From a candidate division WOR-3 bacterium (GTDB taxonomy: Bacteria > Hydrothermota > Tepidihabitantia > SM23-42 > JAOAFX01): 64,000 nt of DNA. The translations under genes were made by a program, and so were the position numbers. How positions within the stretch are numbered: the first letter of the stretch is position 1; every line of letters starts with the position of its first letter. This document shows positions 17,773 to 59,133 of the stretch, piece after piece. Location of the stretch: positions 11,746 through 75,745 of the forward strand of contig JBBILZ010000004.1 in assembly GCA_037444665.1 (NCBI GenBank). The letters are read 5' to 3'. A model generated the notes under the pieces. It did not search any database and was not told the DNA's origin. It saw only the letters and a list, made by a program, of their open reading frames with translations.

Positions 17773-17986
17773 AACAATCCTCCTTGTATGATTATACACT
17801 TCTCAATGGATTCTGTCAATAATTCAAAACCGAGGCTGCGAATAAACTCGGACTCAGTACACCTGAACCACAGCCTGTACCAGGGCAAACTTGCTTTATT
17901 GTCTCCAATCTGATGGATTCTTAAGATGCTGAAATAAATTCAGCATGACAATATCGCTAATCCAAAGTTTTCTGCAACCTTAAATT

Positions 17987-18574: not shown

Positions 18575-18625
18575 CTTTTCTCGTTTTCTCGAGAAAACGG
18601 GAAAATGATTGAATTTTCCTTATAA
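18575..18625. repeat. Palindromic repeat element, copy A (13-bp stem, 4-nt loop, plus a conserved 3' tail)
   Basis: The sequence is ttttctcgttttc tcga gaaaacgggaaaa followed by tgattgaattttccttataaat. A second copy lies at 22265. Confidence 0.5.
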
Positions 18626-19525: not shown

Positions 19526-19548
19526 TTTTATTCTCCTTTCGCCTGCAG

Positions 19549-20161
19549 CTAAAATCTATAGCCACGCCCAGCGCCAAGGTTTAATGGATTATTGAAATAG
19601 GGAATCTGGTAACCAATATAAAGTACAAATCCCGAACCTTGTGCAGGACTTAGATTGATAAAAAAAATCGTAAGGCGCATACAGAGTTAAATGAGTTCCG
19701 AAGCAGAGAATTTCATTTTTATCCCCTTTGAAGCCAACCATTAGTTCTGCCCTAACAATCTCAGGTAATGCAGGGCCTATTGTTAAAGAGAACACATTAC
19801 GACTTTTGTTTCTGGTTATCTCAAATTTAGGGGCAAGATAGAATGAAGGTTTAAATTCCACTTTAGGTTCTATGCCATCATAATAACCATTCATTCCGTA
19901 TACCAATACTACACCCGTAATCCCGACATTTTCAGTAAATCCATAATTGAAACCAAAACCACTACATGCACCGCGCGTATTTTCAAGGGAATATTCATCT
20001 GGGATGCCATAATCAAAACATCTAAATCCAGCAACAGCACCCACCCAACCTGATGAACCTTTTTTGACCATCGGCGAATCAAATGTTGGTGAAATGCAAG
20101 AGAGAAATACAAGCAATATAATCGCTAAATAAAAAAGTGCGTTAGGAAAAGTTCTGGCCAA
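19549..20161 (-). CDS. Small lipoprotein/OMP-like protein, paralog 2, with the C-terminus frameshifted at a T8 (coding A8) tract
   Basis: It matches paralog 1 up to APYDFF. One extra T relative to copy 1 (T8 versus T7, near 19670-19680) shifts the frame. Correcting it restores ...GYQIPYFNNPLNLGAGRGYRF with a stop at 19549. Confidence 0.5.
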
Positions 20162-20600: not shown

Positions 20601-20921
20601 ACCAAATGGTGGTGCAAGGCCTATTGCAACAAAAACTACTCTACCAAGTAATTTGGGTGGAATCAGACCCCCCCATCAACTAAACCAAAATAAAACATCC
20701 CTCTGTTCTATATTCTTCTGCATAAAAAAGATTAGGACGAAAAAAAGAAACCAAAATAATCAGGAAAAGAATTCTCGAAAATAGGTTAAAGGCTATGCCA
20801 AAACTCCATCTTAATTTCTTTTTCATTATTTTTATTTTAATCAAATACTGATAAAGTTCAAGACTTTATTTTAAATAAAAATAATTATATCAGGATTAAC
20901 TATCTGCAACTGCTTTCTGCA

Positions 20922-21929: not shown

Positions 21930-22264
21930 TTAAATAACTCCATTACGCTACAAAAAACAAATATATTGTTACATTTTCGAATCTTGAATCTCATTGAACA
22001 CGGTTTCCTTTGGCCATTATTTTTATCTTACCTAAATTCTAACAGATTTCAAGTATCTGTTTTAAATCAAAATTTTTTACTAAAATTAAACTATCTTCAA
22101 TTACCTTCTGCTGGTTCAGAAAATCATAGATAACATAATCATCGATTTTAGACCTCAAAACCTCATAGTTCAGACCCCCCAAAAAATAAATCTTTACGAC
22201 CCCAAAATCCAATTAGAATATAAGAAAAAACCCACAAATTCCAAAATTTCAATAATATTATTTT

Positions 22265-22320
22265 TTTTCTCGTTTTCTCGTGAAAACGAGAAAAGGTTGA
22301 AATTCCATAAGAAATCAATC
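22265..22320. repeat. Palindromic repeat element, copy B
   Basis: The sequence is ttttctcgttttc tcgt gaaaacgagaaaa followed by ggttgaaattccataagaaat. It is a perfect 13-bp stem. Confidence 0.5.
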
Positions 22321-34620: not shown

Positions 34621-34947
34621 TTAAGATTCCTCGCCTTTGGTCTTTGTCTTTATTGGTTCAACCAACAAAATATAGGCGGGTTTTTCACTGCGCGAGCGAT
34701 GGCGTGTCCCCTGCTTAACCAGATAACCTTCACCTTCTTTTAATTCAATTGATTCATTCTCAAAGTCAATGAAAATCTTTCCTTTTAACACATAAAAGAA
34801 TTCATCTTCATTCATATGTGTATGCCATTTGAAGGCACCGTCAATCTTGGCAATCCGCAGGGCAGTTTCATTGACATATATAACATCCTGCGGTTGCCAT
34901 GGTTCTTTTAATTTTTTATCAATATCCTTAAAACTTATTTTTGGCAT
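34621..34947 (-). CDS. Cupin domain protein
   Basis: The ~108-aa sequence has a cupin_2-like beta-barrel signature. Confidence 0.55.
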   Translation of the reverse strand: MPKISFKDIDKKLKEPWQPQDVIYVNETALRIAKIDGAFKWHTHMNEDEFFYVLKGKIFIDFENESIELKEGEGYLVKQGTRHRSRSEKPAYILLVEPIKTKTKGEES

Positions 34948-35002
34948 AATACCTCCAATTTATTCAAACATCTAATGTACTGTTCATTGTTATTACTTAA
35001 AA

Positions 35003-35093
35003 GGCATTGCCGCCAGTGTGGTTATTAGTCTATTTGTTGTTCGTTATTTTTAGCCATTAAACTATGCCGAAAGACCATACCAGCCGCTATGCC
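35003..35093. repeat. IVS-like inverted-repeat stem-loop element, locus 1 (empty, degenerate)
   Basis: The left arm is ggcattgccgccagtgtggttattag. After a ~45-nt loop, the right arm is accataccagccgctatgcc. It belongs to the same family as 38646 and 46150/46606. Confidence 0.4.
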
Positions 35094-35141
35094 ATATAAC
35101 CAAAAACTTACAACTATCATAGAAAATTACGGCATTTATGA

Positions 35142-36749
35142 TTACATCCTGAAGACGCCAAATTTATGGTCAAGAATTGAGGCATTCAGGGACATCGCAA
35201 TTCCCAAGCCAAGAACCGTACGCGTATCCATCGGGTCAAGTATTCCATCATCCCAGAGTCTTGCGGTAGAATAATAGGCACTTGATTCATACTCATACTT
35301 TGCCAGAATCGGTTTGCGGATTTCTTCTATTTCCTCAGGAGTGAGTTTTCTACCTTCTTTTTCTAATGCCTTGACCTTGATGTCAGTCAGAACATCTGCT
35401 GCCTGTTCGCCACCCATCACACAAATTTTTGCTGTGGGCCACATAAATAAGAGCCTTGGTTCATAAGCCCGACCGCACATTCCATAATTGCCTGCACCAT
35501 AAGAACCACCAATGATTATGGTAAATTTAGGGACCTGGGCATTTGCTACCGCATGCACCAATTTTGCACCATCCTTTGCAATTCCCTGATGTTCATATCG
35601 TTTTCCCACAATAAATCCGGTAATGTTCTGCAGAAATATCAATGGTATCTTCCGCACACAGCACAACTCAATGAAGTGGGCGCCCTTCTGCGATGATTCA
35701 GAGAATAAAACACCATTGTTGGCAAGAATTCCTACGGGATAACCCATAATCCTTGCAAATCCACACACGAGGGTCTGACCATACAATTCTTTGAATTCGT
35801 GGAATTCACTGCCATCAACTATCCGCGCAATGACTTCACGCATATCAAATGGTTTGCGTAAATCCTTAGGGATTATACCATAAAGCTCTTTTGGGTCATA
35901 TGCAGGGTCAACCGGTGTGCTCCGCTCTAATGGATATTTCGGTTGTCTGCCCAGATTCTCCACAATATTTCTGGTTATTTCTATTGCCTGCTCATCATTT
36001 ATGGCATAATGGTCAGAAACACCTGAAATCCTGCAGTGGACATCAGCACCACCAAGTTCCTCTTCAGTAACGACTTCTCCTGTTGCAGCCTTGACCAGGG
36101 GTGGACCGCCAATGTAAATCGTCCCTACACCCTTTACATGGACAACTTCATCACTCATTGCTGGCTGATACGCACCGCCAGCTGTGCAGAATCCCATTAC
36201 TACAGAAATCTGCGGAATATTCATTGCCGACATTATCGCCTGGTTATAAAAGATTCTTCCAAAATGGAATCTATCAGGAAATGTCCCTACCTGTAAGGGG
36301 AGAAAGATGCCCCCAGAGTCCACAAGATAGATACAGGGAAGCCGATTCTCTATGGCAATCTCCTGAGCACGAATATGTTTTTTTATGGTCTCAGGTATGT
36401 ATGTGCCGCCTTTTACAGTTGCGTCATGGGCGATAACCATTACCTCTCTACCATGGACTACACCGATGCCCGTGATAATCGCCGCAGAAGGATGCTCATT
36501 ATCATACATATCCCAGGCAGCAAGCGGACTCAGTTCTAAAAATGGTGTATCAGGGTCAAGCAATAATCTCAATCTGTCGCGCACAAATAGTTTACCCCTT
36601 TCTTTGTGTTTTTTATGCATATAATCTGGACCGCCTTTACGCACCAGTGCCAGCCGCTCTTTGAGAAGTTTGACTGCCTGCTCCACTGCCTGATAATTCT
36701 CCTTGAAATCAGCACTATTGGTGTCTATTTTTGATTCTATTTTATACAT
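35142..36749 (-). CDS. Acyl-CoA carboxylase carboxyltransferase subunit (methylcrotonyl-/propionyl-CoA carboxylase beta-like), 535 aa
   Basis: It has the two-domain crotonase-fold carboxyltransferase layout. Confidence 0.8.
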
Positions 36750-36760
36750 ACACTCCTTTA

Positions 36761-36839
36761 AATTCTAAACAAATTAGAAATCCCAATGTTCCAAGCTATT
36801 TTGCGTTTGGAATTTTTAACATTGAGCATTGTTTAGAAT
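36761..36839. promoter_or_regulatory. Nested imperfect palindrome (about 80 nt) in the spacer upstream of the carboxyltransferase gene
   Basis: The outer arms aaattctaaaca and tgtttagaattt pair, as do the inner arms caatgttccaa and ttggaa..aacattg. A tttagaattt direct repeat is also present. Confidence 0.4.
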
Positions 36840-36860
36840 TTCAAATTTAGAATTTAGTGC

Positions 36861-37265
36861 TCACACAAGCACAGCCTTGTATCCATAGCAGATTATTCCT
36901 GCTGAGCCCTCTTCTTGAATCTTTCGGAAGACAAGTTTTACCTGTTTACCAATCATAACATCTTCGGGTTTACAATCTACTACCTGGGCAGTAATCCGCA
37001 CTCCATCATTCAATTCTATTATTGCGACATTATACGGAACCTGAGTGTTGAACTGTTCTGGTGCAACACGAATTGTTGTATATGTTACAATCTTTCCAGT
37101 TTCGCTCAATTTGACTTTTTCAAAATCTCGTGATTTACAATTATCACAGATAAGTCGGGGTGGAAAGAAAATCTTTCCACATTTTTTACATTTACCCGCC
37201 TCAAGCCGATACCTTTGAGGCATCTCTCTGGTATATCTTGGTGAAGGCATAATTGCTCCTTTCAA
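36861..37265 (-). CDS. DUF35 Zn-ribbon/OB-fold protein (thiolase-HMGS scaffold partner)
   Basis: A CxxC...CxxC rubredoxin-like knuckle is followed by an OB fold. Confidence 0.7.
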   Translation of the reverse strand: MKGAIMPSPRYTREMPQRYRLEAGKCKKCGKIFFPPRLICDNCKSRDFEKVKLSETGKIVTYTTIRVAPEQFNTQVPYNVAIIELNDGVRITAQVVDCKPEDVMIGKQVKLVFRKIQEEGSAGIICYGYKAVLV

Positions 37266-37434
37266 TCAAAACGCAATAATTGCAGTATCATCCGCCACAA
37301 TTCTTGGCGGATTCGCAGTATCGTCCCTTTGGGACTTGCAGTATCGCTGTTGCTTGCACACCTGTCTTTTGCAAACGAAGTGATACTGCACCTCCTGCGA
37401 GTAAAACGATACTGCAAGCGAAGCGATCCTGCGT

Positions 37435-38580
37435 TTATATTGTAAATATATGGACTACCGATGAGGCACCTGAACCACCCATATTCTGCGTCAACCCGAT
37501 CTTTGCATTCTTGACCTGTCTTTTCCCTGCATTGCCACGCAATTGCTCAACAACTTCAACAATCTGCGCAATGCCAGTGGCACCGACGGGATGGCCTTTT
37601 GATTTTAAACCACCTGATGTATTAATAGGTATCTTACCGGTCAATTCAGTCTCACCCTTTTCAACCATCAAGTATGCCTTTCCTCTTTCACAGAAGCCGA
37701 GTTCTTCCATTATACACAATTCAGCAATCGTGAAACAATCATGAACCTCAGCACAATTTACATCGGCAGGTTTTATTCCCGCCATTTTGAACGCCCTTTC
37801 TCCCGCAGTTCTAATGGCGTTAAGACTAAGAATATCCTGCCTCTGATGCAAAGCAATTGTATCGGTTCCAGCACCAGAACCGATCACCCTAACGATTGGT
37901 TTACCTAATTTTTTTGCAGTTTCGGCAGTCGTCACGATTACGCATGCTGCACCATCTGAGACGGGTGAACTGTCCATCATGGTTATCGGGTCTGCAACCA
38001 TCGTTGCATTCAAAACATCATCAAGCGTAACTTCCCTCTGGAATTGGGCATTTGGATTGAGTGCGCCATTTTTATGATTTTTTACTGCGACCATTGCGAG
38101 GTGCTTACGCGTAGCACCATATCTGTGAAAATAGGCATTGGCAATCATTGCAAAAAGTCCAGGGAATGTTATCCCATGGTAGCATTCATATTCTTGGTCA
38201 GCGGCAGTAGATAACGCATAGGTCACATCTGCACCATCGGTCATCTTCTCTACGCCACCGGCAAGGACAATATCATTCATTCCTGAGGCAACATCTAAAA
38301 ATGCCTGCCTGAAGGAAAATCCACCTGAGGCACAGGCAGACTCTACCCTTACTGCTGGTATCGGTGCTACACCAAGATAGTCTGCCATCAATGCACCAAT
38401 GTGCTCCTGGCCAACAAATAGACCTGATGTCATCGTTCCAACATACATTGCATCAATACGGTCAACACCCGCATCGTCAATTGCTTTTAGTGCGGCTTCA
38501 ACAAAAATATCTCTTATTGATTTTGTCCATAATTCACCAAATTTGGTCATACCAATACCGATTACCGCAACTTCCCTCAT
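37435..38580 (-). CDS. Thiolase (acetyl-CoA acetyltransferase, SCP-x/archaeal type)
   Basis: It has the thiolase fold with catalytic Cys, His and Cys contexts. Confidence 0.8.
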
Positions 38581-38645
38581 TATTAACCTCCTTTAGCAGA
38601 AATTATAAAATATTTGGCAAGCCCTGACATCTGTTTTTCGTTTTT

Positions 38646-38739
38646 GGGCATGGCAGCCATTATGGTCTTTAGGCATAATTTTATGCTGAAATAAACTTTT
38701 GACTTAAAACCAAACCGGCGGCTATGCCATATAACCATA
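38646..38739. repeat. IVS-like inverted-repeat stem-loop element, locus 2 (empty, degenerate)
   Basis: The left arm is gggcatggcagccattatggtctttagg. After a ~40-nt loop, the right arm is accaaaccggcggctatgccatat. Confidence 0.4.
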
Positions 38740-38756
38740 AACAATGCCCCAAACCA

Positions 38757-39815
38757 TCACTCTGCCATTATAATCTTATGCCTGTGTTTGGCATATTCGC
38801 CATAGGTCAAATAAATACGATTATTCTCAAGCATATCCTTAATCTTTTCTGCCTTATCACGCACTTCGTTTATTCTCTCTGTCATTTTGAACACAAAGGC
38901 ATCGCTACCAGCACCAGAACCAAAAGAGACAAGAAAGATTAAATCATTGGGCTGTGCTACATCAAGAACTGCGGAAAATCCGGTTGGTGAAGAACCAGAA
39001 TAGGTATTACCCATTAATGGCACAATCCAGCCCGGCTCAATCTGCTCTTTTTTGAATCCTAATCTCTTACCTATGGTCATAGGAAACTTACCATTGGGCA
39101 TATGAAAGATTGCATATTTGAAGTCCTGTGGTTTGTATCCAGTCTTTTCAAGCATCCCTTTGCCTGCATTATAGATATGTTTAAAATACGCCGGGTCACC
39201 AGTGAATCTTCCACCATGTCTGGGATAGAACTGGTACTCCCGACGCCAGAAATCCGGTGTATCAGTTGCCCAGGAATATGTATCAAGAACTTCTACTACA
39301 ATATTTTCTTTGCCAAAAATAAATGCAGAACCACCAGCAGATGCAGAGAATTCAAGGGCATCGCCTGGTGCACCCTGAGAAGTATCAGCACCGATTCCCA
39401 TCGCATATTCCATTAGACCTGCCCTGACCAAACCATATGCCACAAACATCGCCTCAGTCCCTGCCTTACAGGCAAACTCAAAACTGGCAATGTGGACCTC
39501 AGGTGTAATACCAAGAACCTCAGCGACAACTGTTGCCGATGGTTTTACTGCATAAGGGTGGGATTCAGAACCAACATAGACTGCGCCAATCTTTTTCGGG
39601 TCAATTCCCGCACGCTTCAAGGCATTCTTTGCCGCAGCCACAGAAATGGTGATTGTATCCTCATCCATCCCGGGCACGGTCTTCTCTTTGAGTGCCAATC
39701 CCTTTTTTATTGTCTCCGGGTCTCTGCCCCATTGTTTTGCAATCTCATCTACTTTAATACGATAACGGGGCAGATAAGACCCATAACCCACAATTCCAAT
39801 CTTTTCAGTTGGCAT
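38757..39815 (-). CDS. Hydroxymethylglutaryl-CoA synthase (archaeal/ketoacyl-synthase III-like type)
   Basis: It starts MPTEKIGIVGYGSYLPRYRIKVDEIA... and carries a Cys-His-Asn triad layout. Confidence 0.75.
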   Translation of the reverse strand: MPTEKIGIVGYGSYLPRYRIKVDEIAKQWGRDPETIKKGLALKEKTVPGMDEDTITISVAAAKNALKRAGIDPKKIGAVYVGSESHPYAVKPSATVVAEVLGITPEVHIASFEFACKAGTEAMFVAYGLVRAGLMEYAMGIGADTSQGAPGDALEFSASAGGSAFIFGKENIVVEVLDTYSWATDTPDFWRREYQFYPRHGGRFTGDPAYFKHIYNAGKGMLEKTGYKPQDFKYAIFHMPNGKFPMTIGKRLGFKKEQIEPGWIVPLMGNTYSGSSPTGFSAVLDVAQPNDLIFLVSFGSGAGSDAFVFKMTERINEVRDKAEKIKDMLENNRIYLTYGEYAKHRHKIIMAE

Positions 39816-39856
39816 TAATTACCTCCTTAATAATAAAGATTTTATTCTGACTTAAG

Positions 39857-40888
39857 TCAGAGACCATAATCTTTCATTTCTTTAAGTTCACGCAAAACCT
39901 CTCTCATAGGTGGGGCATCAAACCATTTTCTCTTTGTCAGGCCATTTGTATATGCCTGATATATCAAACTTATCGCCCTGTATAACTCTCTGGTGAGAGG
40001 CGGGGGTGATGATTTCACATTTGATTTCCAATTAACCCTGTCTCTTTTCTTTGCCTCTTCCACATCCTTGAACCACTCTGTATTACGATAAAATATCCGT
40101 GCGATCTCCTTGCTCACAGGTAAACCTTCATAGGTGAACCTACATTCATCCAGTGTTCCCAGGGCATCAACAAGGACAAAATTACGTTGCTCATCAAAAC
40201 CGAGTTCAATCTTACCATCCTCATTAAACAGACCAAGAGATTTGGTCTCTTTTGTAATCAATTCGTTGATAATAGCAACTATCCTTTTCATCTCATCAAG
40301 TTCTTTGTCAGATAGTGCACAAATATTTTTAGCCTCATCCCAGGAAAGATACCTATCAGTAATCTCAAGTTTTGTTGAAACATCATAGATCGGTCTATCA
40401 AGGACCTGCCCTGGTTCAGGCATCTTATCAAATCCGATATCAGATAATTTCAAAGTTCCCTCTTTTAAGCGCTTGAATACTGATGAACCACCAGGTAGGG
40501 CATTGCGATAGATTACCTCAAGGGGTATTAAGAAGTTATTCTTCTCTTTTTGATAAATAGAATAATCATACACATTACCTGTTAAGGCTGGTCTTATCAC
40601 CCTGAGGATTTTTACCTCAATTGTATTGGAAGGCTTTGATAATTCATTCAAGCGTTTGGGTTTTCCATCCTCAACAACACCAAGATAATGGGTCTTTATT
40701 CCGAGTTCCTCAGCCTTTTCAAAAAAATAGGCAGTGGCAATGCAGATTGCAGCACCTTTATTTAATATATGGTCAGGCATCTCACCCCAGTCAAAGACTG
40801 AATATCTATCTGAAAAGACAAATCTACCAATGCCAGGTTCTTTATCTGTTGGTTCTTTTATTATATTCAAATCTTTGACACTACCCAT
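39857..40888 (-). CDS. SAICAR synthetase family protein (PurC-like, long form)
   Basis: It carries the N-terminal GSVKDL...GRFVFSDRYSVFDWG motif region. Confidence 0.55.
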   Translation of the reverse strand: MGSVKDLNIIKEPTDKEPGIGRFVFSDRYSVFDWGEMPDHILNKGAAICIATAYFFEKAEELGIKTHYLGVVEDGKPKRLNELSKPSNTIEVKILRVIRPALTGNVYDYSIYQKEKNNFLIPLEVIYRNALPGGSSVFKRLKEGTLKLSDIGFDKMPEPGQVLDRPIYDVSTKLEITDRYLSWDEAKNICALSDKELDEMKRIVAIINELITKETKSLGLFNEDGKIELGFDEQRNFVLVDALGTLDECRFTYEGLPVSKEIARIFYRNTEWFKDVEEAKKRDRVNWKSNVKSSPPPLTRELYRAISLIYQAYTNGLTKRKWFDAPPMREVLRELKEMKDYGL

Positions 40889-41354
40889 TCTTAATCTCCT
40901 CATCTGCCTTTTCCAGTTCTTTTTTCTTCTCGTCTTGATATGCCGCTACCTTTGATGTAAGGGTCTTATCAGATAAAGCAAGAATCTTTATTGCGGCAAG
41001 GCCTGCCTCTTCAGGTTCAAGGATTGTAAGGGGGCATACTCCAGAGGGCATGCGCAGGGTAGAAAAGATATCTGCACCAGAGAACTTCTCACTATAAGGT
41101 GGACAGGCAATCACTGGCTTTGTTGTATTTGCATCAACAAAACCGCTCAGGGCATTACTCCTGCCTGCAACTGTGATAAAGACGACATTCTCGTTTCCAT
41201 AGGACTTAATGATTTCAAGGACTCTTAAGGGAACTTTATGGGCAGAGGCGACCCGCATTATGCAACCAACCCCAAATCCCTCTATTACCTTCGCAATCTT
41301 TTTACAATGCTCAAGGTCTCCTTTAGACCCCATAATGATGACTACCTTTGCCAT
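40881..41354 (-). CDS. AIR carboxylase / N5-CAIR mutase family protein (PurE-like)
   Basis: It carries VVIIMGSKGDLEHCKK...VASAHKVP...VAGRSNALSG. Confidence 0.7.
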   Translation of the reverse strand: MAKVVIIMGSKGDLEHCKKIAKVIEGFGVGCIMRVASAHKVPLRVLEIIKSYGNENVVFITVAGRSNALSGFVDANTTKPVIACPPYSEKFSGADIFSTLRMPSGVCPLTILEPEEAGLAAIKILALSDKTLTSKVAAYQDEKKKELEKADEEIKNG

Positions 41355-41429
41355 TCATACCCCTTTCTTTTAATAAATTTTATTATATTCAAAAAAGGCA
41401 TTGAGGTCAATAAAAATCGGTGACTCCCT

Positions 41430-42419
41430 TTATTTTTGGTCTTTTAAGTACTTATCAAAAAACCCAAGCACCCTTTCAAAGAATTCCGGATAGTTAACAA
41501 ATTCTGGACCATTAATTCCGCCGTGCTCAGCTCCTGGTACTATCCATAATTCTTTTGGTCCTTTTAGTTTTTTCGCCACCTTTTCTGACATCCATACCGG
41601 TGTCCGATTATCTTTTTCACCAACAATCAAAAATACTGGAATTGTTATCTTCTCTGCTGCATTGATGGGTAATAATTCTTCTGGATAATCTTCAGGGATT
41701 ACAAAATTTCTTTCGGGTAAAGATTTCTTAAGAACTGCTAAGAGTTCCTCAAATGAACTCATCAATGCCCTGCCCGCATAAGCAGCAATGCCATTTCTCT
41801 TTGCGATAATGGCAAAAGAGAGATAAGCTCCTGTTGAAAAACCCATAACTCCAATTCTTGTAGTATCAACTTCTAACCTCTGTTTCACATAATCAATCGC
41901 TGCATCATAATCAGTAATAAATTCGGTGCAGCATAAACGTTCCGGGTTTATTTGCCAGTCAGCACTCACACCAAAACCACGCCAGTCAAAGAGAAATACA
42001 TTGTAGCCTTTTGTAAAAAAATGGTAGGCATAAAAGATAAACTGGGTCATATTCCCTGCATCGCCACCACAGATAATCAGCGTGGGCCTTCGGGAATCAT
42101 CCATAGTTTGATATTCACGCGGTGCTGGTTTTAATTCATTTGGAACCGGCACCATTCTGCCGATGATGGAATTGGCAATGCCTGCCGTCTCCTGGGCAGG
42201 GATAAACCATCCTCTCAAATTTAGACTATCAGATGTGAGAAACTCAACCTCCTGATAAATTATCCCATAATCTGAAGGTATCGCCTTATACTCTCGCTCT
42301 GGTTTGAGTGCGTATGAGGGGAAAAAAACAAATAATAGCAATACTAAATATAATGCATATTGTTTAAAACACATATCAGTTCTTAATTGTGGTAGAGTAA
42401 ACATCAAACCTCCTTTCAC
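41430..42419 (-). CDS. Secreted alpha/beta hydrolase (dienelactone hydrolase/peptidase S9-like)
   Basis: It has a signal peptide and the GFSTGAY nucleophile elbow. Confidence 0.6.
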   Translation of the reverse strand: MKGGLMFTLPQLRTDMCFKQYALYLVLLLFVFFPSYALKPEREYKAIPSDYGIIYQEVEFLTSDSLNLRGWFIPAQETAGIANSIIGRMVPVPNELKPAPREYQTMDDSRRPTLIICGGDAGNMTQFIFYAYHFFTKGYNVFLFDWRGFGVSADWQINPERLCCTEFITDYDAAIDYVKQRLEVDTTRIGVMGFSTGAYLSFAIIAKRNGIAAYAGRALMSSFEELLAVLKKSLPERNFVIPEDYPEELLPINAAEKITIPVFLIVGEKDNRTPVWMSEKVAKKLKGPKELWIVPGAEHGGINGPEFVNYPEFFERVLGFFDKYLKDQK

Positions 42420-42460
42420 CCCATCCCTGAAATAAATTTAGGACATGTTCTCTTTTTAAT

Positions 42461-42476
42461 GTTACAAAAACTTTTG
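42461..42476. promoter_or_regulatory. Third operator-like palindrome TTGTCAAATTGACCA, upstream of the alpha/beta hydrolase gene
   Basis: It is related to TTGGTCAATTGACCAA at 32541. Confidence 0.3.
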
Positions 42477-42500
42477 TCAAATTGACCATTAGAATCTATC

Positions 42501-43115
42501 CTAAGATACATTCGTGGTTTGTGTCTTCCTATATGAATACATCAACAAAAGGAGCCAGGCACCATATATGAGACCAGCAGCTATTGTTAAAAAACCGATT
42601 ATTCTTACAAAACTGGCAATCACGATATCCATAGTCAGAAGTCCTAATTTACCGAGGAGATAGTTCCAATCATGGGTTATCGGTCCTGTGACACCAAAAA
42701 GTGTTACTAAAGGTAATTCCATTGTCCGCGCATCCGCAATATAATTGGCAACACCGAAAAAATTCGTTGCCAGCCAGACAAGGGCGACCGAAATCGCAAA
42801 GAAATCACGCTGATGATAAAACATAATTATACCGATTACCGGAATCAAACATTGCAAAAATGAACCACCGAGCGTGCAGATAAAATTACCAAAGAGTGCA
42901 AAGACAAGGTGACCGAGTTCATGAATACAAAGATTTAATGGAGCAAATATACCTTGATTATCAAAGCCGGGTATATTACGCACAAAGAGATAAAAAAGAT
43001 AAAGGTAGAGTAAGAACCGGAGTTGCCAGCGCCGACCCAGACACCAATTTTTGGACTTCTGGAGGAAACGGAACAAAAAATCACTAACATGTGCTTTCAA
43101 CCCCACAGATTCCAA
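42501..43115 (-). CDS. Small polytopic membrane protein with an HExxH motif (putative intramembrane zinc metallopeptidase-like)
   Basis: HELGH lies within a TM segment. Confidence 0.3.
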   Translation of the reverse strand: MESVGLKAHVSDFLFRFLQKSKNWCLGRRWQLRFLLYLYLFYLFVRNIPGFDNQGIFAPLNLCIHELGHLVFALFGNFICTLGGSFLQCLIPVIGIIMFYHQRDFFAISVALVWLATNFFGVANYIADARTMELPLVTLFGVTGPITHDWNYLLGKLGLLTMDIVIASFVRIIGFLTIAAGLIYGAWLLLLMYSYRKTQTTNVS

Positions 43116-43237
43116 GTGCCTCCTTTAAATCATTTCAGTTGTTCGGACAGGGACGAGCCCTGTCCCTACATTATAACATATCGTCGCCTATGGGACGGTC
43201 AAGAATCCCGTCTTCGGCATTCGTTAAAGGGAAAGGG

Positions 43238-43627
43238 TCATTTAGTATATTTCCGTAATGCATCTTTTATCATTCTTTTGGATGGATATGGATACTGTTT
43301 TCCTTTGTAATAATAAATTCGGCAACCACAACTGCATTCCTGTTTTACAAATTCAGTGGTCTGTTTGCTTTTTGAAAGTTCTTCGCAAGGTAGACATCGT
43401 GCCTTATCTATTGTCTCCTGAATATCTTCTCCATTTATCCTGATTGTAGGTGAACCGACAAATTTATATTTTTTTGCCTTTGCTGCAGTGTCTATCAAGA
43501 TTTCTTTAATTTCTGATTTTATATTGAGTTCTTTCAAAGATTCCTTGAGCAATTTCTTTGTTATTAAACACCAGGGGCAATCAAGAATATAAAGATATTC
43601 AATTTTTAATGAAGGTTTTTTTCTCAT
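43238..43627 (-). CDS. Thioredoxin-fold protein with a CPWC motif and a Cys-rich C-terminus
   Basis: It carries LDCPWC near the N-terminus and CSCGC near the C-terminus. Confidence 0.4.
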   Translation of the reverse strand: MRKKPSLKIEYLYILDCPWCLITKKLLKESLKELNIKSEIKEILIDTAAKAKKYKFVGSPTIRINGEDIQETIDKARCLPCEELSKSKQTTEFVKQECSCGCRIYYYKGKQYPYPSKRMIKDALRKYTK

Positions 43628-43645
43628 AATTCTCCTAAAGTTATG

Positions 43646-44818
43646 CTATCCTATTCTTTTCAATGCCTGTTCAAGGTCGGCAATCAAATCATCAACATTT
43701 TCAATACCTACTGACATACGCACAAATCCTGGATTTATTCCCGCCTTTACCAACTCCTCTTCAGTATATGTGGAATGGGTCATTGATGCAGGATGCTCAA
43801 TAAGGGTATCTGTATCACCGAGGCTTACTGCAAGGGTGAATAATTTGATTGAATTCATAAGAATTTTTCCTGCCTCTTTTCCACCCTTTAAATCAAATCC
43901 TAACATACCACCAAATGCCCGCATCTGCTTTTTGGCAATATTATGACCAGGATGGTCTTCAAGACCAGGATAATAGACCTTCTCTACCTTGGGATGGCTT
44001 TTCAAAAATCGTGCGATTGCCATAGCGTTTTCACAATGTCTCTCCATCCGCACTGCCAATGTTCTCAGACCCCGTAAAATCAGCCAGGCATTCACCGGTG
44101 AAATACAGCCGCCAACATCCTTTGCAATTCCATCCCCCATTACTTTTATCAAATCTTTTTTCCCGACAACTATTCCACCAATCAAATCTCCATGGCCACC
44201 AAGATACTTTGTTGCGGAATGCAATACTATATCCGCGCCAAGTTCTATTGGTCTTTGCAGATATGGTGTGGCAAATGTGTTATCCACACAGAGTAAAATT
44301 TTATGTTTATGCGCAATGCCGGCTATTTTGGCGATATCATTTATTTTTAAAGTGGGATTGGCTGGTGATTCAATGAGAATCATTTTTGTTTTTGGCTGGA
44401 TGGTTGATTCAATCTCCTTTTCGTCGGTGGTGTCCACAAAAGTAGTAGTAATTCCTATGCGCGGTAAGACATTTTGAAAAAGGGCATAAGTGCCGCCATA
44501 GATTACCTTATCACATAAAATATGCTCCCCATTTTTGCAAACGGTGAGCACCGTGGCAAATATTGCTGCCATACCTGAGGCAAATGCCAATCCTGCCTCA
44601 GCTGACTCAAGTAGAGCCATCTTTTGTGCCAGTAAATTAATGGTTGGATTACCCAAACGGGTATAAATATATCCTTCTTCTTCTTGTTTAAATAATCGTG
44701 CACCGTGATCAACATCTTTAAAAACAAATGTAGATGTCATATAAATTGGCGGAACATGGGCACCAGTCTTTTCATCGTGATGCACACCACCATGCACGAT
44801 ATTCGTCTCTATGTGCAT
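43646..44818 (-). CDS. PLP-dependent Cys/Met metabolism enzyme (methionine gamma-lyase / cystathionine gamma-synthase family)
   Basis: It carries the HSATKYLGGHGD PLP-lysine motif. Confidence 0.75.
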   Translation of the reverse strand: MHIETNIVHGGVHHDEKTGAHVPPIYMTSTFVFKDVDHGARLFKQEEEGYIYTRLGNPTINLLAQKMALLESAEAGLAFASGMAAIFATVLTVCKNGEHILCDKVIYGGTYALFQNVLPRIGITTTFVDTTDEKEIESTIQPKTKMILIESPANPTLKINDIAKIAGIAHKHKILLCVDNTFATPYLQRPIELGADIVLHSATKYLGGHGDLIGGIVVGKKDLIKVMGDGIAKDVGGCISPVNAWLILRGLRTLAVRMERHCENAMAIARFLKSHPKVEKVYYPGLEDHPGHNIAKKQMRAFGGMLGFDLKGGKEAGKILMNSIKLFTLAVSLGDTDTLIEHPASMTHSTYTEEELVKAGINPGFVRMSVGIENVDDLIADLEQALKRIG

Positions 44819-44967
44819 AAAAACCTCCTATCAAGAAAACCCAAATCCCAAATAGCAAATCCCAAACAAGCTCCAATATGCAAACTATTAACAAAAGAAT
44901 AATTTGATCTCTTGAAATTTCTCCTAATCGCGACCTTCTCAAACAAATTTCCTGATACAGTCATAAA

Positions 44968-45273
44968 TTATCCAATCTTCAACATTGCTCTATCTATCTT
45001 ATATTTTTCGCAGATACGTTCAATCACTGAATCAGGGACCTGTGCACCAATTCGCTCATATCTTTCGTATTCTTTTTTAGTCAACCCTATCGATTTCGCA
45101 AACTCCCCGGTTGACATTTGTAATTCTGTCCTGAATCTCCACAGTCTCTGTGGTGTTCCGTCGCGATTACATTTAATATCCTCCCAATATCTAATCTTCT
45201 CGGGCGGATAGTATTTTTTGATGAACATTAACATCTGATATGAATTAATCAGCCGCTGTTTATAAATATTCAT
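44968..45273 (-). CDS. XRE-family helix-turn-helix transcriptional regulator
   Basis: It carries an HTH_3-like segment (TGEFAKSIGLTKKEYERYE). Confidence 0.55.
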   Translation of the reverse strand: MNIYKQRLINSYQMLMFIKKYYPPEKIRYWEDIKCNRDGTPQRLWRFRTELQMSTGEFAKSIGLTKKEYERYERIGAQVPDSVIERICEKYKIDRAMLKIG

Positions 45274-45743
45274 AATTCTTTTAAATTCTTGACATCCCTT
45301 ATATCAATATCGCGACCCGCCCTGCTCTTTATTCTTATGAGTTCATCCTTGTCTATAACTTCAAACTTGACCCCTTCTATCTCAATCTTAACCTTTTTTA
45401 ACTTATCATAGTCGTAAATTAAAACGACATCAAGATTGAAAGCATTTTTTTGGTCTCTGAAATTGATTACCCCGGCATTCTTTTTTCTTATCCACTCACT
45501 CCTTTTCTTCTTATCCGATAGTTCTAATGGATTGATGGGAACAAGGGGTGAAAGATGAAACTCCTTGAGGATTTTGTTGAATTTCTTTACATTGGATGGT
45601 GAAAATTGCAGGACAATATCAAGGTCAAAGGTTGCCCTGGGAACACCATGGATAATTGCTGCCACTCCTCCTACAACTGCATATTTTATCTTCGCTTCGC
45701 TGAGCCTTCTGATAATTGCAAAGAATGGTGGAAGCATACCCAT
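45270..45743 (-). CDS. Minimal nucleotidyltransferase-fold protein (toxin-antitoxin-associated type)
   Basis: It carries GG.AA.IHG..R.T.D.D. Its stop overlaps the HTH gene start by 4 nt. Confidence 0.4.
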   Translation of the reverse strand: MGMLPPFFAIIRRLSEAKIKYAVVGGVAAIIHGVPRATFDLDIVLQFSPSNVKKFNKILKEFHLSPLVPINPLELSDKKKRSEWIRKKNAGVINFRDQKNAFNLDVVLIYDYDKLKKVKIEIEGVKFEVIDKDELIRIKSRAGRDIDIRDVKNLKEL

Positions 45744-45744
45744 T

Positions 45745-46584
45745 TTATTCTTCAGTAAGTTCAATCAATACACCACCTGCGGTCTGGGGATGGATAAAGG
45801 CAATCTTTTTGCCCATTGCACCCTTGCGGGGTTTTTCATCTATCAATTTCACACCAGATTTTTTTAACTCTTCCAGTACCTCTTCAATATTCTCAACTGC
45901 AAAGGCAATGTGGTGCAAGCCCTCTCCCCTTTTTTCAATAAATTTGGCAACCGTGCTCTCTGGATTCAATGGTTCAAGTAATTCAATATGTGTATCACCG
46001 ATTTCCAGCATTGCAACCTTTACTTTTTGCGCAGGAACTTCTTCTATGGTAAGCAGGGTCAATCCTAAAACATCCTGCCAGAACTTGAGACTCTCGGTGA
46101 TGCTCTTTACTGCGATGGCGATATGGGACAAAAAATAGTAAGTAGTATAAGGTTTCTGGGCATAGCGGCCAGTATGGTCATTAGGCGTGGTCTTATGTTT
46201 CCGGTATTTGAAATTATCCCAGGCCTGAGCCAAATTAAACAATTGACGTGCACATATATCATAGACTTTTATTAGTCTCTCACAAGTTTCTACTTCAATA
46301 TGGTAGATATCCTTGATATGTTCTAAACTTACAATAGTTTCGTTGCACTCTGCCATAGCATCATCAAGATATTTTTGAAATCCAGACTTCTGATGCTTTT
46401 TTGCAAAGCCTTCACTTATTAAACGGGGGATCGCCTTTGACGACCTACTTAATTGCTCGTAGAGATCATATTTTTCACTTGCTGGCAACTTCGGTAAGAT
46501 AACTCTTGCAATCTCAATAGATGCCCGATATGCATTTTGAAAAACTTCCAAATCACGGAAACTCCGTATAGGCTTTTTATTCAT
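45745..46584 (-). CDS. In-frame fusion ORF of a four-helix-bundle protein (23S rRNA intervening-sequence protein family) and methylmalonyl-CoA epimerase (VOC fold)
   Basis: The N-terminal ~125 aa ([22 protein letters not shown]...) are four-helix-bundle-like. The C-terminal ~135 aa ([10 protein letters not shown]...[10 protein letters not shown]...GGVLIELTE) are MCE. The linker is encoded by the inverted-repeat arm. Confidence 0.6.
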
Positions 46585-46634
46585 AAGAAATAAACCTATA
46601 ACCTAAAACCATACTGGCAGCTATGCCCAATAAC
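46150..46634 (-). mobile_element. IVS-like element: near-perfect inverted repeats of about 28 bp flanking the four-helix-bundle ORF
   Basis: Arm 46150-46178 (rc gaccatactggccgctatgccca) and arm 46606-46634 (accatactggcagctatgccca) match at 21 of 23 positions. Degenerate empty copies lie at 35003 and 38646. Confidence 0.5.
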
Positions 46635-46643
46635 CATAAACCA

Positions 46644-47939
46644 CTATAACAATTTTCTCTTCTTTGCTTCTTCTTCAAGCCAGGGGCGGAATTTAGGATG
46701 AGCAATATTAATCAATGCTTCTGCACGCTGACGAAGATTTTTCCCATGAAGATAGGCAACCCCATATTCTGTAACAACATAATGAACATCCGCCCGTGTC
46801 GTTACTACACCAGCACCAACTTGAAGTGTTGGGACAATCTTTGAAAGTGTATCATTCTTTGCAGTTGAGGGTAAGGCGATTATTGGTTTTCCGCCTTTTG
46901 CCTGGGCAGCACCACGGATAAAGTCAACTTGACCACCAAATCCAGAATAGATTTTTGTGCCAATTGAGTCTGAACAGACCTGGCCTGTAATATCAACCTC
47001 AATCGCCGAGTTTATTGCTATCATCTTGTCATTGCGTGCGACCACAACAGGATGATTAGTATAGTTGGTAGGATGGGTCTCAAAGATAGGATTATTATCA
47101 ATAAATTCATAAAGCCTTTTAGTGCCAAGATAGAATGTTGCCACAACTTTATAGGGATGGAGTGTCTTTTTTGCACCAGTGATAACTCCTGCCTCAATAG
47201 CCTCCATTATACTATCTGATACCATCTCAGTATGCACACCCAAATCCCTCTTGTCAAACATTGCTTTCAATGCCGCATTTGGTATACCGCCAATTCCCAG
47301 TTGCAAAGTAGAACCATCTTCAACTAAATTGGCAATATATGAACCAATCTTTTTCTCAACTTCAGTGAATGGTATACTTTCAAGTTCAGGTAAATCCGCA
47401 TTAACCTCAACTATCTTATGAACCCTGGAAATATGAATAAACGAATCACCCAGGGTGCGGGGCATCTTCTCGTTCACCTGGGCAATGACAATCTTTGCAG
47501 TCTCAGCCGCTGCCTTTGATGAAAGGCATTCAACACCAAAACTCATAAAACCATGTTCATCTGGTGGTGAAAGATGCAAAAACGCAACATCAATAGGTAA
47601 TAAACCAGAATAGAATAAATCTGGTATTTCATACAAAAATACGGGTATATAATCAGCGCGCCCGTCATTTACTGCCGCACGATCACCCGGACCAACAAAC
47701 AAAGAGTTGTGTCTGAAATGCCCTTCCATACCTGGTTTTGACAATGGGTCATCGCCAAAAAGTAAAACATGTGTCACCTCAACATTCTTCAATTCATCCT
47801 TGCGTGTAGCAAGTGCCTGGGTAAGGGTCATTGGTGTCGCCGCATTCCCGCTTATGTAAATTCGGTCGTTACTCTTTACTACAGATACTGCTTCTTCAAT
47901 TGAACATTTTTTCTTTTTATATTCATCAAACCAGGTCAT
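46644..47939 (-). CDS. Acetyl-CoA hydrolase/transferase family protein (4-hydroxybutyrate or succinyl-CoA:acetate CoA-transferase-like)
   Basis: It has the two-domain CoA-transferase layout, 431 aa. Confidence 0.7.
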   Translation of the reverse strand: MTWFDEYKKKKCSIEEAVSVVKSNDRIYISGNAATPMTLTQALATRKDELKNVEVTHVLLFGDDPLSKPGMEGHFRHNSLFVGPGDRAAVNDGRADYIPVFLYEIPDLFYSGLLPIDVAFLHLSPPDEHGFMSFGVECLSSKAAAETAKIVIAQVNEKMPRTLGDSFIHISRVHKIVEVNADLPELESIPFTEVEKKIGSYIANLVEDGSTLQLGIGGIPNAALKAMFDKRDLGVHTEMVSDSIMEAIEAGVITGAKKTLHPYKVVATFYLGTKRLYEFIDNNPIFETHPTNYTNHPVVVARNDKMIAINSAIEVDITGQVCSDSIGTKIYSGFGGQVDFIRGAAQAKGGKPIIALPSTAKNDTLSKIVPTLQVGAGVVTTRADVHYVVTEYGVAYLHGKNLRQRAEALINIAHPKFRPWLEEEAKKRKLL

Positions 47940-52341: not shown

Positions 52342-52962
52342 TTATTCTATAATAATCAGTTTATCTTTGCTATTTACTGTTTGCCCTTTTTGAACAAAAA
52401 TTTTCTTTATGACACCATCTCTCGGCGCCTTGAACTCATTCTGCATCTTCATTGCCTCAATAATCACCAAACCCTGCCCTTTCTTGACGGCGTCTCCTTC
52501 ACTTACCTCAACTTCAATCACCAAACCTGGCATCGGTGCAGTAATAATTGTCTCTTTTTTATGAACAGCATCTGCACCAGCCTTTAATACCCGGGCAATC
52601 TTTTCATCAACGACTTCAAAAGTATATTTATCACGGTCAACTGCAATCACCAAACCTGGCATCGGTGCAGTAATAATTGTCTCTTTTTTATGAACAGCAT
52701 CTGCACCAGCCTTTAATACCCGGGCAATCTTTTCATCAACGACTTCAAAAGTATATTCATCACGGTCAACTGCAATTTTATTATCCTTGCCAATGTGAAT
52801 CTGATATGGTCTATTATTGATTATCAGGGTCAGTGTTTCTTTATCAATGTCTACTACCTCCACCTGAATATTTTTACCATTCAAGGAAACCACATAACTA
52901 TTCCCTGATTTCTCAATATCGCACTTAAATTCCTTATCATCAATTTTCACAATATACGCCAT
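52342..52962 (-). CDS. Biotin carboxyl carrier protein (biotinyl domain EAMKM) with an internal 43-aa tandem duplication
   Basis: The C-terminus reads ...IEAMKMQNEFKAP. The segment DRD(E/K)YTFEVVDEKIARVLKAGADAVHKKETIITAPMPGLVI(A/E)V occurs twice. Confidence 0.75.
   Translation of the reverse strand: MAYIVKIDDKEFKCDIEKSGNSYVVSLNGKNIQVEVVDIDKETLTLIINNRPYQIHIGKDNKIAVDRDEYTFEVVDEKIARVLKAGADAVHKKETIITAPMPGLVIAVDRDKYTFEVVDEKIARVLKAGADAVHKKETIITAPMPGLVIEVEVSEGDAVKKGQGLVIIEAMKMQNEFKAPRDGVIKKIFVQKGQTVNSKDKLIIIE
52517..52774. repeat. Two copies of a 129-bp in-frame tandem direct repeat inside the BCCP gene
   Basis: The copies are near-identical, with 2-3 mismatches. Confidence 0.7.
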
Positions 52963-53810: not shown

Positions 53811-53858
53811 TTATTTCCTCCTTTTGTTAAAATGAAATCATTATCATACCGGCAGATT

Positions 53859-53930
53859 CTTTTCCAATTCTTATCCCCTTCCTAACCTGCACTACCTCAA
53901 ACATAATTTTATTATATCAACAATCTAAAA
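53859..53930. repeat. About 75-bp direct repeat, family A, copy 1. It is the promoter and leader of the HNH gene. The second copy lies at 59026..59098 upstream of the DNA MTase gene.
   Basis: The shared sequence is cttttccaattcttatccccttcctaacctgcactacctcaaacataattttattatatcaacaa. It is near-identical at both loci. Confidence 0.6.
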
Positions 53931-53936
53931 GAATCA

Positions 53937-58913: not shown

Positions 58914-59025
58914 ATTCCTTTATCTCCTTTATATCCGAAGTTGATTACGGATATACATCCTTCTGGCTGAAGTGCCAGATTCTATTCTGTTTTGAATCTC
59001 TTTTATCCATTACCGCTCCCCGAGT

Positions 59026-59098
59026 CTTTTCCAATTCTTATCCCCTTCCTAACCTGCACTACCTCAAACATAATTTTATTATATCAACAAACTAAAAA
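59026..59098. repeat. About 75-bp direct repeat, family A, copy 2 (promoter region of the MTase gene)
   Basis: See 53859..53930. Confidence 0.6.
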
Positions 59099-59133
59099 AA
59101 GTCAAGCATCACAGGGGTAGGGCGTTATGAAAT

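Follow-up and report, generated by a model that had tools for sequence, protein, structure and literature searches.

Probable hairpin-bounded cassettes carrying four-helix-bundle protein genes in the operon junctions of a WOR-3 bacterium

Results

The DNA analysed here, 64,000 nucleotides from a candidate division WOR-3 bacterium (contig JBBILZ010000004.1; the whole stretch is called the window below), has all its genes between 31.9 and 63.7 kb on the minus strand. Among them are a cluster for HMGS, thiolase, a DUF35 (ChsH2-like) protein, carboxyltransferase and a cupin (34621-39815, minus strand; delimited with Pfam and by comparing its spacers in 80 relatives) and an acetyl-CoA hydrolase/transferase gene (46644-47939, minus strand, Pfam; CoA-transferase below), which precedes a gene with an epimerase domain in a neighbourhood that also includes CstA, alanine dehydrogenase, DUF6036, helix-turn-helix (HTH) and pyridoxal-phosphate (PLP) enzyme genes. 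An earlier sequence-only reading had pointed to a shared pair of inverted-repeat arms in the cupin/carboxyltransferase, HMGS/thiolase and CoA-transferase/epimerase spacers, the last pair enclosing a four-helix-bundle (4HB) open reading frame (ORF) of the family typical of 23S rRNA intervening sequences (IVSs). Pfam assignments of the flanking genes agree with the three spacers so named, and the three loci stand; that reading overlooked two further hairpin spacers of the same cluster, all four junctions of which are occupied, as is the CoA-transferase/epimerase junction.

The 20-nt arm GGCATAGCGGCCAGTATGGT was found by motif scan, with at most 3 mismatches, at six sites in the window, which form three inverted pairs (35003/35074, 38647/38709 and 46159/46608). 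Shuffled sequences gave an expectation of 0.01 sites, and none of 100 shuffles reached six, so that the three inverted-repeat loci are real. We refer to this arm as type A. Its full-length element (46141-46645, minus strand, delimited by the inverted repeat and the RNA fold) consists, in transcription sense, of a 5′ arm that begins 2 nt past the CoA-transferase stop codon (46608-46645, minus strand), a leader, the 4HB ORF and a 3′ arm which is translated as the C-terminal tail of that ORF (46141-46178, minus strand). Aligned base by base, the arms are complementary at 20/21 positions in the core and at 32/38 (84%) over their extended 38 nt, and lie 429 nt apart. The other two loci are hairpins that have no ORF. 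That of the carboxyltransferase/cupin spacer (34989-35107, minus strand) has arms at 35074-35107 and 34989-35022, complementary at 24/34 positions, and a 51-nt loop. That of the HMGS/thiolase spacer (38632-38743, minus strand) has core arms at 38709-38728 and 38647-38666, extended arms at 38632-38683 and 38692-38743 with an inverted-repeat score of z 7.0, and retains the full copy's leader (84% identity over 55 nt). When the minus-strand RNA is folded the arms pair at all three loci, with z of -7.8 for the full element, -2.1 for the carboxyltransferase/cupin hairpin and -3.2 for the HMGS/thiolase hairpin.

Between 34500 and 47000 we counted 27 promoter-like sites (34.6 expected) and 11 terminator-like sites (9.8 expected), none of either kind at the hairpins, and with only six sites and no promoter enrichment the arm motif is not a generic promoter element. 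One promoter-like hexamer pair, ATGTCA-17 nt-TATAAT (38602-38630, minus strand), lies between the HMGS/thiolase hairpin and the thiolase start. In the window no family of Rfam attains its gathering score.

The two overlooked spacers belong to different arm types. The DUF35/carboxyltransferase spacer contains an ORF-less type-B hairpin (36757-36844, minus strand; arms TTGAAATTCTAAACAA and TTGTTTAGAATTTAAA, of the AAATTCTAAAC type; inverted-repeat z 5.1, fold z -4.0) in which the start ATG and the initial codons of another 4HB subfamily survive, with full-length relatives at L090 and L096 (L and P numbers are our handles for loci and proteins). The thiolase/DUF35 spacer (37266-37434, minus strand) is filled with type-C repeats made of GCAGTATCG units, with main arms at 37407-37418 and 37335-37346 and small nested hairpins (inverted-repeat z 5.5, fold z -5.7), and the same spacer type recurs in relatives L082-L091. 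A search for a full-length parent with type-C (GCAGTATC) arms gave scattered pairs only, none of which was looked into, and identified no ORF-bearing parent. The window thus holds one full and two stem-only copies of type A and one stem-only copy each of types B and C, the two ORF-less type-A copies measuring about 110-120 nt and lying with types B and C within 4 kb, as expected of small repeats similar to miniature transposable elements with inverted repeats (MITEs). A tblastn search of the window with all cargo types revealed no other 4HB or GxxExxY gene besides the single copy.

The ORF enclosed by the full element matches PF05635 with 65.9 bits (cut-off 33.8) and TIGR02436 with 54.8 bits (cut-off 24), which places it, above both curated cut-offs, in the protein family of the 23S rRNA IVSs; the 4HB domain (46240-46557, minus strand) corresponds to residues 10-115 when the ORF is counted from its start at 46584 (PF05635 E 4.3e-18). 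The family assignment made earlier therefore stands, but not the idea of a separate ORF of about 125 aa, as the frame has no stop codon before the epimerase: on translation it runs through the 3′ arm and into the downstream gene. The result is a 279-aa ORF (45745-46584, minus strand) that joins the 4HB in frame to a methylmalonyl-CoA-epimerase-like glyoxalase domain; the gene caller gives the identical product and Pfam detects both domains. The only candidate start that the epimerase part (45745-46131, minus strand) has of its own is a TTG at 46131-46129. Compared with its orthologues, the 4HB part is under purifying selection (pN 0.18 vs pS 0.77-0.88). Its subfamily matches the solved homologue 2GSC weakly in sequence (E 4e-4). 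No reverse transcriptase and no direct-repeat pair of the template/variable (TR/VR) kind, as found in diversity-generating retroelements (DGRs), turned up near 46 kb in a search of the window.

The order CoA-transferase/4HB/epimerase is common to WOR-3 loci L002-L004, L009, L010, L012 and L025 and to metagenomic loci L099 and L115. In the window and in L002, L003, L004, L009, L010 and L025 the stop codon is gone and the fusion is in frame (271-279 aa), and in L003, L009 and L010 no start codon is found near the epimerase N-terminus; fusion proteins of 268-282 aa form 11 clusters at 90% identity (P0121-P0131), none of them named in databases. L012, L099 and L115 have a 4HB with its stop codon and an epimerase with its own ATG, and in L093, L116 and L117 there is no insert, the CoA-transferase stop overlapping the epimerase start (ATGA). 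The stem persists in the fused copies (32/38 in the window; 21/23 to 27/33 in four of its six fused relatives, namely L003, L009, L010 and L025), and flanking repeats accompany the 4HB in those relatives that retain it at this site; with complementary arms and a motif that is no generic promoter element, none of the conditions that the earlier reading had named as refuting it holds. Since there are relatives with separate genes, relatives that have no 4HB, and free-standing instances of the same 4HB and arms elsewhere, the fusion is, judging from these comparisons, a secondary capture of an inserted element, which has lost its stop codon and now gives the epimerase its start codon and N-terminal domain. 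Further long proteins (310-358 aa) start with the same 4HB (P0135, P0153, P0220-P0224 and P0229), one of which carries a prepilin-type N-methylation motif (PF07963), so that the cassette ORF may have been fused by read-through with downstream genes more than once.

A metagenome scan with the thiolase yielded 80 relatives (66-90% identity), many with 10-kb flanks, on which we mapped the window genes and compared the CoA-transferase/epimerase, HMGS/thiolase, thiolase/DUF35, DUF35/carboxyltransferase and carboxyltransferase/cupin junctions. Spacer lengths are trimodal at all five (-16 to 15, about 110-260 and about 420-680 nt). The shortest class, in which genes overlap or lie about 10 nt apart, includes all the distant relatives, and a control junction, alanine dehydrogenase/CoA-transferase, measures -4 nt in 17/17. 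Small ORFs of the long spacers lie on the operon strand in 28 of 29 cases and belong, according to NCBIfam, to five TIGR02436 subfamilies, to three of TIGR04256 (GxxExxY, PD-(D/E)XK-like) and, in one case, to a RelE-like toxin; the type-A protein hidden Markov model matched three type-A copies only, the remaining ORFs being identified via NCBIfam. An inverted repeat brackets each insert at the spacer ends, with its own arm sequence for each ORF subfamily (for example AAATCCTAAATCCGAAAT.., AAATGCCTAAATACCTAAA, ATTGAGTCGTTGAGTC, AGTAGTCAGTAGCCAGTAA, CACTGAAGACACTGAAG and CATTGATGGAAACAGAT), and where arms match, the only ORFs enclosed are those of 4HB or GxxExxY proteins. Because the mid-size spacers share those arm types and often retain a start codon with a few codons, or half an ORF (L101, L105, L107, L112 and the type-B copy of the window), they are deletion derivatives.

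The inserts start 2-4 nt past the stop codon and terminate a few bases short of the following gene's Shine-Dalgarno sequence. Some are nested (L093, L108 and L099), and a given junction can hold different types, or be empty, in hosts that differ by only about 10% in thiolase, which indicates rapid turnover; in L084, the HMGS/thiolase junction is clean and thiolase and DUF35 overlap. All ORF-less type-A copies of the cluster whose loop can be read by eye lie in operon sense. Orthologous junctions that are empty, ORF-less or ORF-bearing bear out the proposal that these are elements inserted in intercistronic spacers, and window and relatives together support a repeat family in which one member bears an ORF and several do not. 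In the light of these alignments, the loci are insertions into an ancestrally tight operon, which different subfamilies have invaded, re-invaded and entered in nested fashion before decaying in place.

Two other kinds of sequence were noticed in these spacers. A G+C-rich palindrome (..tatcccccccacctcaatcctccccctcgaggggggagggaaaggg..) is nested in the loops of AAAT-type hairpins in the thiolase/DUF35, DUF35/carboxyltransferase and carboxyltransferase/cupin spacers of L093, and the DUF35/carboxyltransferase spacer of L102 was grouped with it; in the HMGS/thiolase spacer of L093 the AAAT-type arms hold a nested type-A hairpin instead. The palindrome has the look of a further repeat family, smaller than the first and inserting into it. 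The HMGS/thiolase spacer of L126 (516 nt) and the DUF35/carboxyltransferase spacers of L100 and L103 (713 and 887 nt) hold other cargo, namely a gene for a RelE-like toxin accompanied by another small ORF, or else a 231-aa gene that matches no NCBIfam model, and these inserts have no clear flanking inverted repeat.

The unit of arms and 4HB gene is not confined to this operon. The window 4HB has 2360 homologues with the same Pfam label (60-77% identity) in WOR-3, many Patescibacteria, Omnitrophota, Planctomycetota, Nitrospirota, Desulfobacterota and Bacteroidales, and their conserved C-terminal tail, RRRKTxPxNDTGxDA, is the translated 3′ arm. As the earlier reading had suggested that related genomes be searched for TIGR02436-like ORFs with flanking arms, it is relevant that an inverted repeat brackets the ORF in about 60 of 80 genome loci, its 5′ arm at positions of about -70 to -25 relative to the ATG, its 3′ arm overlapping the end of the ORF. 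The upstream stop codon lies 0-20 nt before the type-A 5′ arm in 22/32 loci, across phyla. Two classes of loop were found, one of 416-460 nt with the ORF and one of 30-54 nt that has none; the 22 stem-only type-A copies, 17 of which have loops of 42-54 nt, comprise the outer 30-bp stem and an inner stem of about 8-10 bp, only the ORF being missing. ORF-less copies keep the leader, the start-codon region and the tail before the arm of full copies, and the view that empty copies are derivatives is thereby upheld: by their sequence, they are internal-deletion or stem-only derivatives of full ones. The 4HB protein is under purifying selection (mean pN 0.23 vs pS 0.85; median dN/dS 0.135; 0.26 for the L009/L010 pair).

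Arm sequence varies by locus, each 5′ arm pairing best with its own 3′ arm (mean score 13.6, compared with 9.6 for the 3′ flank of another locus and 8.0 for shuffled sequence; p 6e-22). Among 60 copies aligned in register, which had been pre-selected for at least 20/30 complementarity, 78% of the cells are paired, whereas shuffling the columns leaves 65% and sliding the partner 31-40%; changes on both sides affect 273 cells (146 ± 8 in shuffles), and the covariation score of 0.339 (0.145 in shuffles) is reached by none of 500 shuffles. Eleven alignment columns are invariant and nine nearly so, of which four are an artificial GAAA linker, and the invariant columns point to recognition of a specific sequence in addition to pairing.

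rRNA is absent from all 79 related loci (Rfam at the gathering threshold; tRNAs only). At L071 a type-A 4HB element (4001-4429) is followed 22 nt on by a co-oriented tRNA gene (4451-4536), and its contig carries two more tRNAs, so that cassettes may also enter tRNA operons. No type-A 4HB is encoded in the IMG/VR viral contigs, and phage carriage was rejected as the cause of the cross-phylum spread.

The arms of type A have an autocorrelation peak at a lag of 7 nt (z 11.5; z 6.4 for all filled spacers), although those of the window are degenerate. In cultured bacteria, TIGR02436 genes occur on plasmid records, annotated as "four helix bundle protein" or "S23 ribosomal protein", and of the eight records that we examined, seven have the 4HB gene flanked by tandem heptamers arranged as inverted arrays. 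They are those of Nostoc sp. ATCC 53789 (unit GGGAAAA, arms 29/31), Anabaena sp. 90 (AGGTGAC, 29/32), Calothrix brevissima (GGGTGTA, 32/36), Nostoc edaphicum (GGGAGTA, 33/34), Nostoc sp. C052 (GGGAACA, 33/35), Calothrix PCC 7716 (GTTAGCT, 86% over 29 nt) and Riemerella anatipestifer (GGTTYAA, 18/20). In two plasmids the 4HB gene and its heptamer arrays lie between cas6 and cas4, namely Pseudanabaena galeata pPg_01 (L166, 1504-1863) and Anabaena sp. 90 pANA02 (L167, 1501-1869; type I-D by its cas1d). The "23S rRNA IVP" family has been found to be statistically associated with CRISPR loci (PMC10910872), an association that may reflect hitch-hiking rather than function.

The window also contains other repeats. 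A 129-nt unit is duplicated in tandem at 52508-52765 (called perfect; 98% identity) inside the ORF at 52342-52962, and a duplication of about 600 nt (17154-17747 and 19539-20133; 77-95% identity, 2.39 kb apart) spans the paralogous minus-strand ORFs 17164-17799 and 19589-20161. A 79-nt A+T-rich intergenic block is repeated with 96% identity (53855-53933 and 59022-59100), the palindrome TTTTCTCGTTTTCTCGAGAAAACGGGAAAA occurs twice (18575-18605 and 22265-22295), and a 97-nt intergenic block is repeated with 71% identity (20824-20920 and 22015-22111); these last three have no sequence kinship to the hairpin cassettes.

Discussion

Our comparison of the window with its relatives suggests with good confidence that these loci are members of a widespread and apparently undescribed class of small, selfish, hairpin-bounded cassettes, lodged downstream of one cistron's stop codon and ahead of the ribosome-binding site (RBS) of the next. 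A full cassette has an interrupted terminal inverted repeat of 30-50 bp built of units of about 7 nt, then a leader of about 25-40 nt and a cargo gene for a 4HB protein of about 130-150 aa (TIGR02436/PF05635), whose C-terminal tail is encoded by the 3′ arm, while a stem-only cassette consists of both arms and a loop of 30-54 nt. What the loci are is much more secure than how they act. For the latter an account modelled on rRNA IVSs seems to us the best overall explanation, by a modest preference.

The closest likeness is to the IVSs of 23S rRNA in Leptospira, Coxiella and Xanthomonas (S23p/23S_rRNA_IVP), which share with the cassettes a PF05635/TIGR02436 protein, a size of about 430-500 nt and a long terminal stem around the element, as in the full copy of the window (32/38, 429-nt loop, fold z -7.8). 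Also common to both are short ORF-less hairpin forms alongside and a sporadic, horizontally transferred distribution (PMC4990558, PMC11270868). The ORF-bearing IVS of Coxiella, in particular, combines a length of 428-444 nt with a 28-bp stem and an S23p ORF, and RNase III cuts it (PMC4990558); this anatomy is comparable to the terminal stem of 30-50 bp and the loop of about 430 nt with an ORF in the cassettes. However, the cassettes lie in operon junctions and not in helices 9, 25 or 45 of 23S rRNA, with none of the 79 loci in rRNA; their ORF is under clear purifying selection whereas the Coxiella S23p is thought not to be made; and the window copy is fused to a host enzyme. They are thus IVS-like in anatomy but fail the defining rRNA location. 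RNase III excision with no religation, which is known for rRNA IVSs, would apply to the cassettes by analogy.

Bacterial MITEs, non-coding units of about 100-200 bp that have inverted repeats at their ends and several copies in a genome (Correia/NEMIS of Neisseria, ERIC of enterobacteria, YPAL of Yersinia), resemble the stem-only cassettes in being intergenic ORF-less inverted-repeat hairpins of about 90-120 nt, co-transcribed with their neighbours (as the cassettes probably are), with empty and filled sites that differ among relatives. RNase III binds Correia stems and cleaves them, an activity documented on co-transcribed inverted-repeat elements, and in-frame fusions to host genes are known for MITEs (PMC2649163, PMC2229807). 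Unlike MITEs, the cassettes have neither TA nor any other visible target-site duplication, their parent encodes a 4HB or GxxExxY protein instead of an insertion-sequence transposase, their arms are made of units of about 7 nt, and the ORF-less type-A copies of the cluster that can be read by eye are all in operon orientation.

The short tandemly repeated repetitive (STRR) sequences of cyanobacteria, for which no function is known, form hairpins between co-transcribed genes such as hupS and hupL (PMC2670836). They resemble the cassettes in their 7-nt units (about 7 nt in the cassettes), the hairpin and the intergenic position between co-transcribed genes, and plasmids of Nostoc, Calothrix and Anabaena have such inverted heptamer arrays around 4HB genes; on the other hand, STRRs have been described as gene-less repeats and the window arms are degenerate, not perfect heptamer arrays. 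Avd, the accessory variability determinant of DGRs, has a homologous four-helix-bundle fold (PMC10053308) and forms a basic pentameric barrel, like S23 proteins, that binds structured RNA (bioRxiv 10.1101/2023.10.23.563531). A DGR reading of the window copy was rejected, as neither a reverse transcriptase nor a template/variable repeat pair adjoins it. Integron cassettes, too, have small promoter-less ORFs in the orientation of their neighbours, a foldable imperfect inverted repeat and expression by read-through (which the cassettes described here would share), but the integron attC is single and at the 3′ end where the present repeat brackets the ORF, and our cassettes are dispersed in housekeeping and metabolic operons rather than arrayed beside an integrase (intI). 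An integron-cassette reading was discarded on the placement of the repeat.

On the IVS-like account, the cassettes would be transcribed by read-through from the host operon, as their mostly operon orientation and the lack of a recognisable promoter suggest. The arms would then pair as a long stem with the cargo looped out, and this stem would be a candidate substrate of RNase III, as in rRNA IVSs and the Correia elements of Neisseria, whose processing would part the flanking cistrons. The 4HB protein, for its part, could recognise its own arms, as RNA or as DNA, a proposal that we base on the invariant arm core, on the co-variation of arms and cargo and on the RNA-binding pentameric barrel of its homologue Avd. 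Purifying selection on the protein, together with subfamily-specific arms that have an invariant core, suggests that it would serve the propagation or retention of the element and not the host.

Several observations weigh against this account. Mismatches in the sense-strand stem include no excess of G-U over A-C (45 vs 41; 81 vs 88), a symmetry unlike the usual picture of a stem under selection for RNA pairing, and the covariation described above comes from copies chosen beforehand for their complementarity. Old orthologous stem-only copies, such as those at the DUF35/carboxyltransferase junction of L084-L099, keep both arm cores and lose the outer pairing uncompensated, and complementarity may accordingly matter at birth or transposition and not in the transcript. 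At the full copy of the window and at its six orthologues, which are in-frame fusions, a cut by RNase III would sever the epimerase coding sequence, and this, with the missing wobble bias, argues against efficient RNase III cutting there. Two of the eight cultured examples (L164 and L169) are antisense to both neighbours, and in Pseudanabaena (L166) the arrays are direct, not inverted. Finally, no target-site duplication was visible by eye between filled and empty junctions, where boundaries are fuzzy and short duplications possible, and no mobility enzyme was identified, there being no transposase, integrase or reverse transcriptase beside the copies examined.

Many of the same observations are what would be expected if the cassettes acted as DNA, which we regard as the main rival of the IVS-like account and as a possible, if less probable, alternative. 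The inverted repeats would then be terminal recognition or recombination sites, as duplex, cruciform or single-strand hairpin, used by the cargo (4HB or the PD-(D/E)XK-type GxxExxY nuclease) or by an unlinked enzyme, ORF-less copies being non-autonomous in the manner of MITEs and the RNA stem a by-product. Stem mismatches that have no wobble bias, uncompensated decay in place and the antisense copies L164 and L169 agree with this, as do the fast turnover of types at one junction among hosts about 10% diverged and the uniform size of the stem-only form (loop of 42-54 nt in 17/22). An invariant core in both arms across phyla is reminiscent of pairs of transposase and terminal inverted repeat (TIR), arm type follows cargo subfamily, and a nuclease (TIGR04256) is the alternative cargo. 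Set against it are the absence of target-site duplications in the comparison of filled with empty sites, that of a transposase, integrase or reverse transcriptase in the vicinity of the examined copies, and the sense orientation of every eye-readable ORF-less type-A copy of the cluster, which would be unusual for MITEs. We also count against it that 4HB proteins have, to our knowledge, no known catalytic activity.

It is improbable that the cassettes are intercistronic RNA elements in the service of the host, which would stabilise the mRNA or set enzyme stoichiometry through translational coupling or differential decay, as considered for STRR, REP and ERIC sequences. Their exact intercistronic placement, which leaves the downstream Shine-Dalgarno sequence free, their significantly stable folds and the conservation of some ORF-less copies across many relatives (such as type A at DUF35/carboxyltransferase) would fit such a role, and transcript stabilisation or translational coupling has been suggested as the role of the STRR hairpins located between hupS and hupL (PMC2670836). 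However, the same operon has overlapping or 10-15-nt junctions in distant relatives, close relatives have unrelated arm types or none at the same junction, and the same arm types are found beside unrelated genes in eight or more phyla. Moreover, the copies decay, and the cargo ORF is foreign to the chemistry of the operon.

Still more doubtful, and in our estimation very unlikely, is that the 4HB-epimerase is a plain two-domain gene with incidental complementarity at its flanks. The in-frame fusion is kept in seven loci and 11 protein clusters, several of these fusions have no internal start codon, and both parts are under purifying selection. Yet in L012, L099 and L115 a stop codon and a separate ATG-initiated epimerase stand in the same synteny, L093, L116 and L117 have an ATGA overlap in place of the 4HB, and the same 4HB with its arms is free-standing in dozens of unrelated contexts; with relatives that have separate genes or no 4HB, the 4HB was rejected as an original domain of the epimerase. 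A coincidental match, or a promoter or terminator motif of a generic kind, has a negligible probability as the explanation of the arm, since the single promoter-like hexamer pair beside the HMGS/thiolase hairpin (38630-38602) is outweighed by six arm sites where 0.01 are expected, by the promoter-like (27 vs 34.6) and terminator-like (11 vs 9.8) counts with none at the hairpins, and by the covariation of the arms, which together refute it.

If cassettes with an IVS-like anatomy are considered together with their possible relatives, a broader idea can be put forward tentatively. IVSs, STRR hairpins and the thousands of orphan 4HB and GxxExxY genes spread over bacterial operons could all belong to one class of autonomous mobile cassettes, in which the sole gene product, an Avd-like nucleic-acid-binding barrel or a small PD-(D/E)XK nuclease, would recognise its own heptad hairpin and propagate into stop/RBS junctions and rRNA loops in a manner unlike that of known transposases, stem-only copies being non-autonomous forms or relics. 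In the literature that we searched, where coverage is incomplete and curators' notes may mention them, we found no paper on 4HB or GxxExxY cassettes with heptad inverted repeats in operon junctions, nor, with the same incomplete coverage, one that ties STRRs to 4HB cassettes.

The nature of rRNA IVSs, and the role of the 4HB ORF that they carry, has been a question for some 30 years, and it becomes testable because the same architecture is abundant outside rRNA, with filled and empty sites, several cargo families, cognate arms, a protein under selection and carriers in culture, among them Nostoc, Anabaena sp. 90, Calothrix and Riemerella. For the STRR heptamer repeats, which are used in strain typing and have gone unexplained, the cassettes suggest a possible origin. 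As regards annotation, two very large families of "hypothetical" proteins are probably element-borne and not members of the operons in which they are found, and the same would hold for their apparent association with CRISPR loci. For genome evolution, these elements uncouple genes that were translationally coupled, and in this lineage a core metabolic enzyme has taken its N-terminal domain and start codon from a captured copy.

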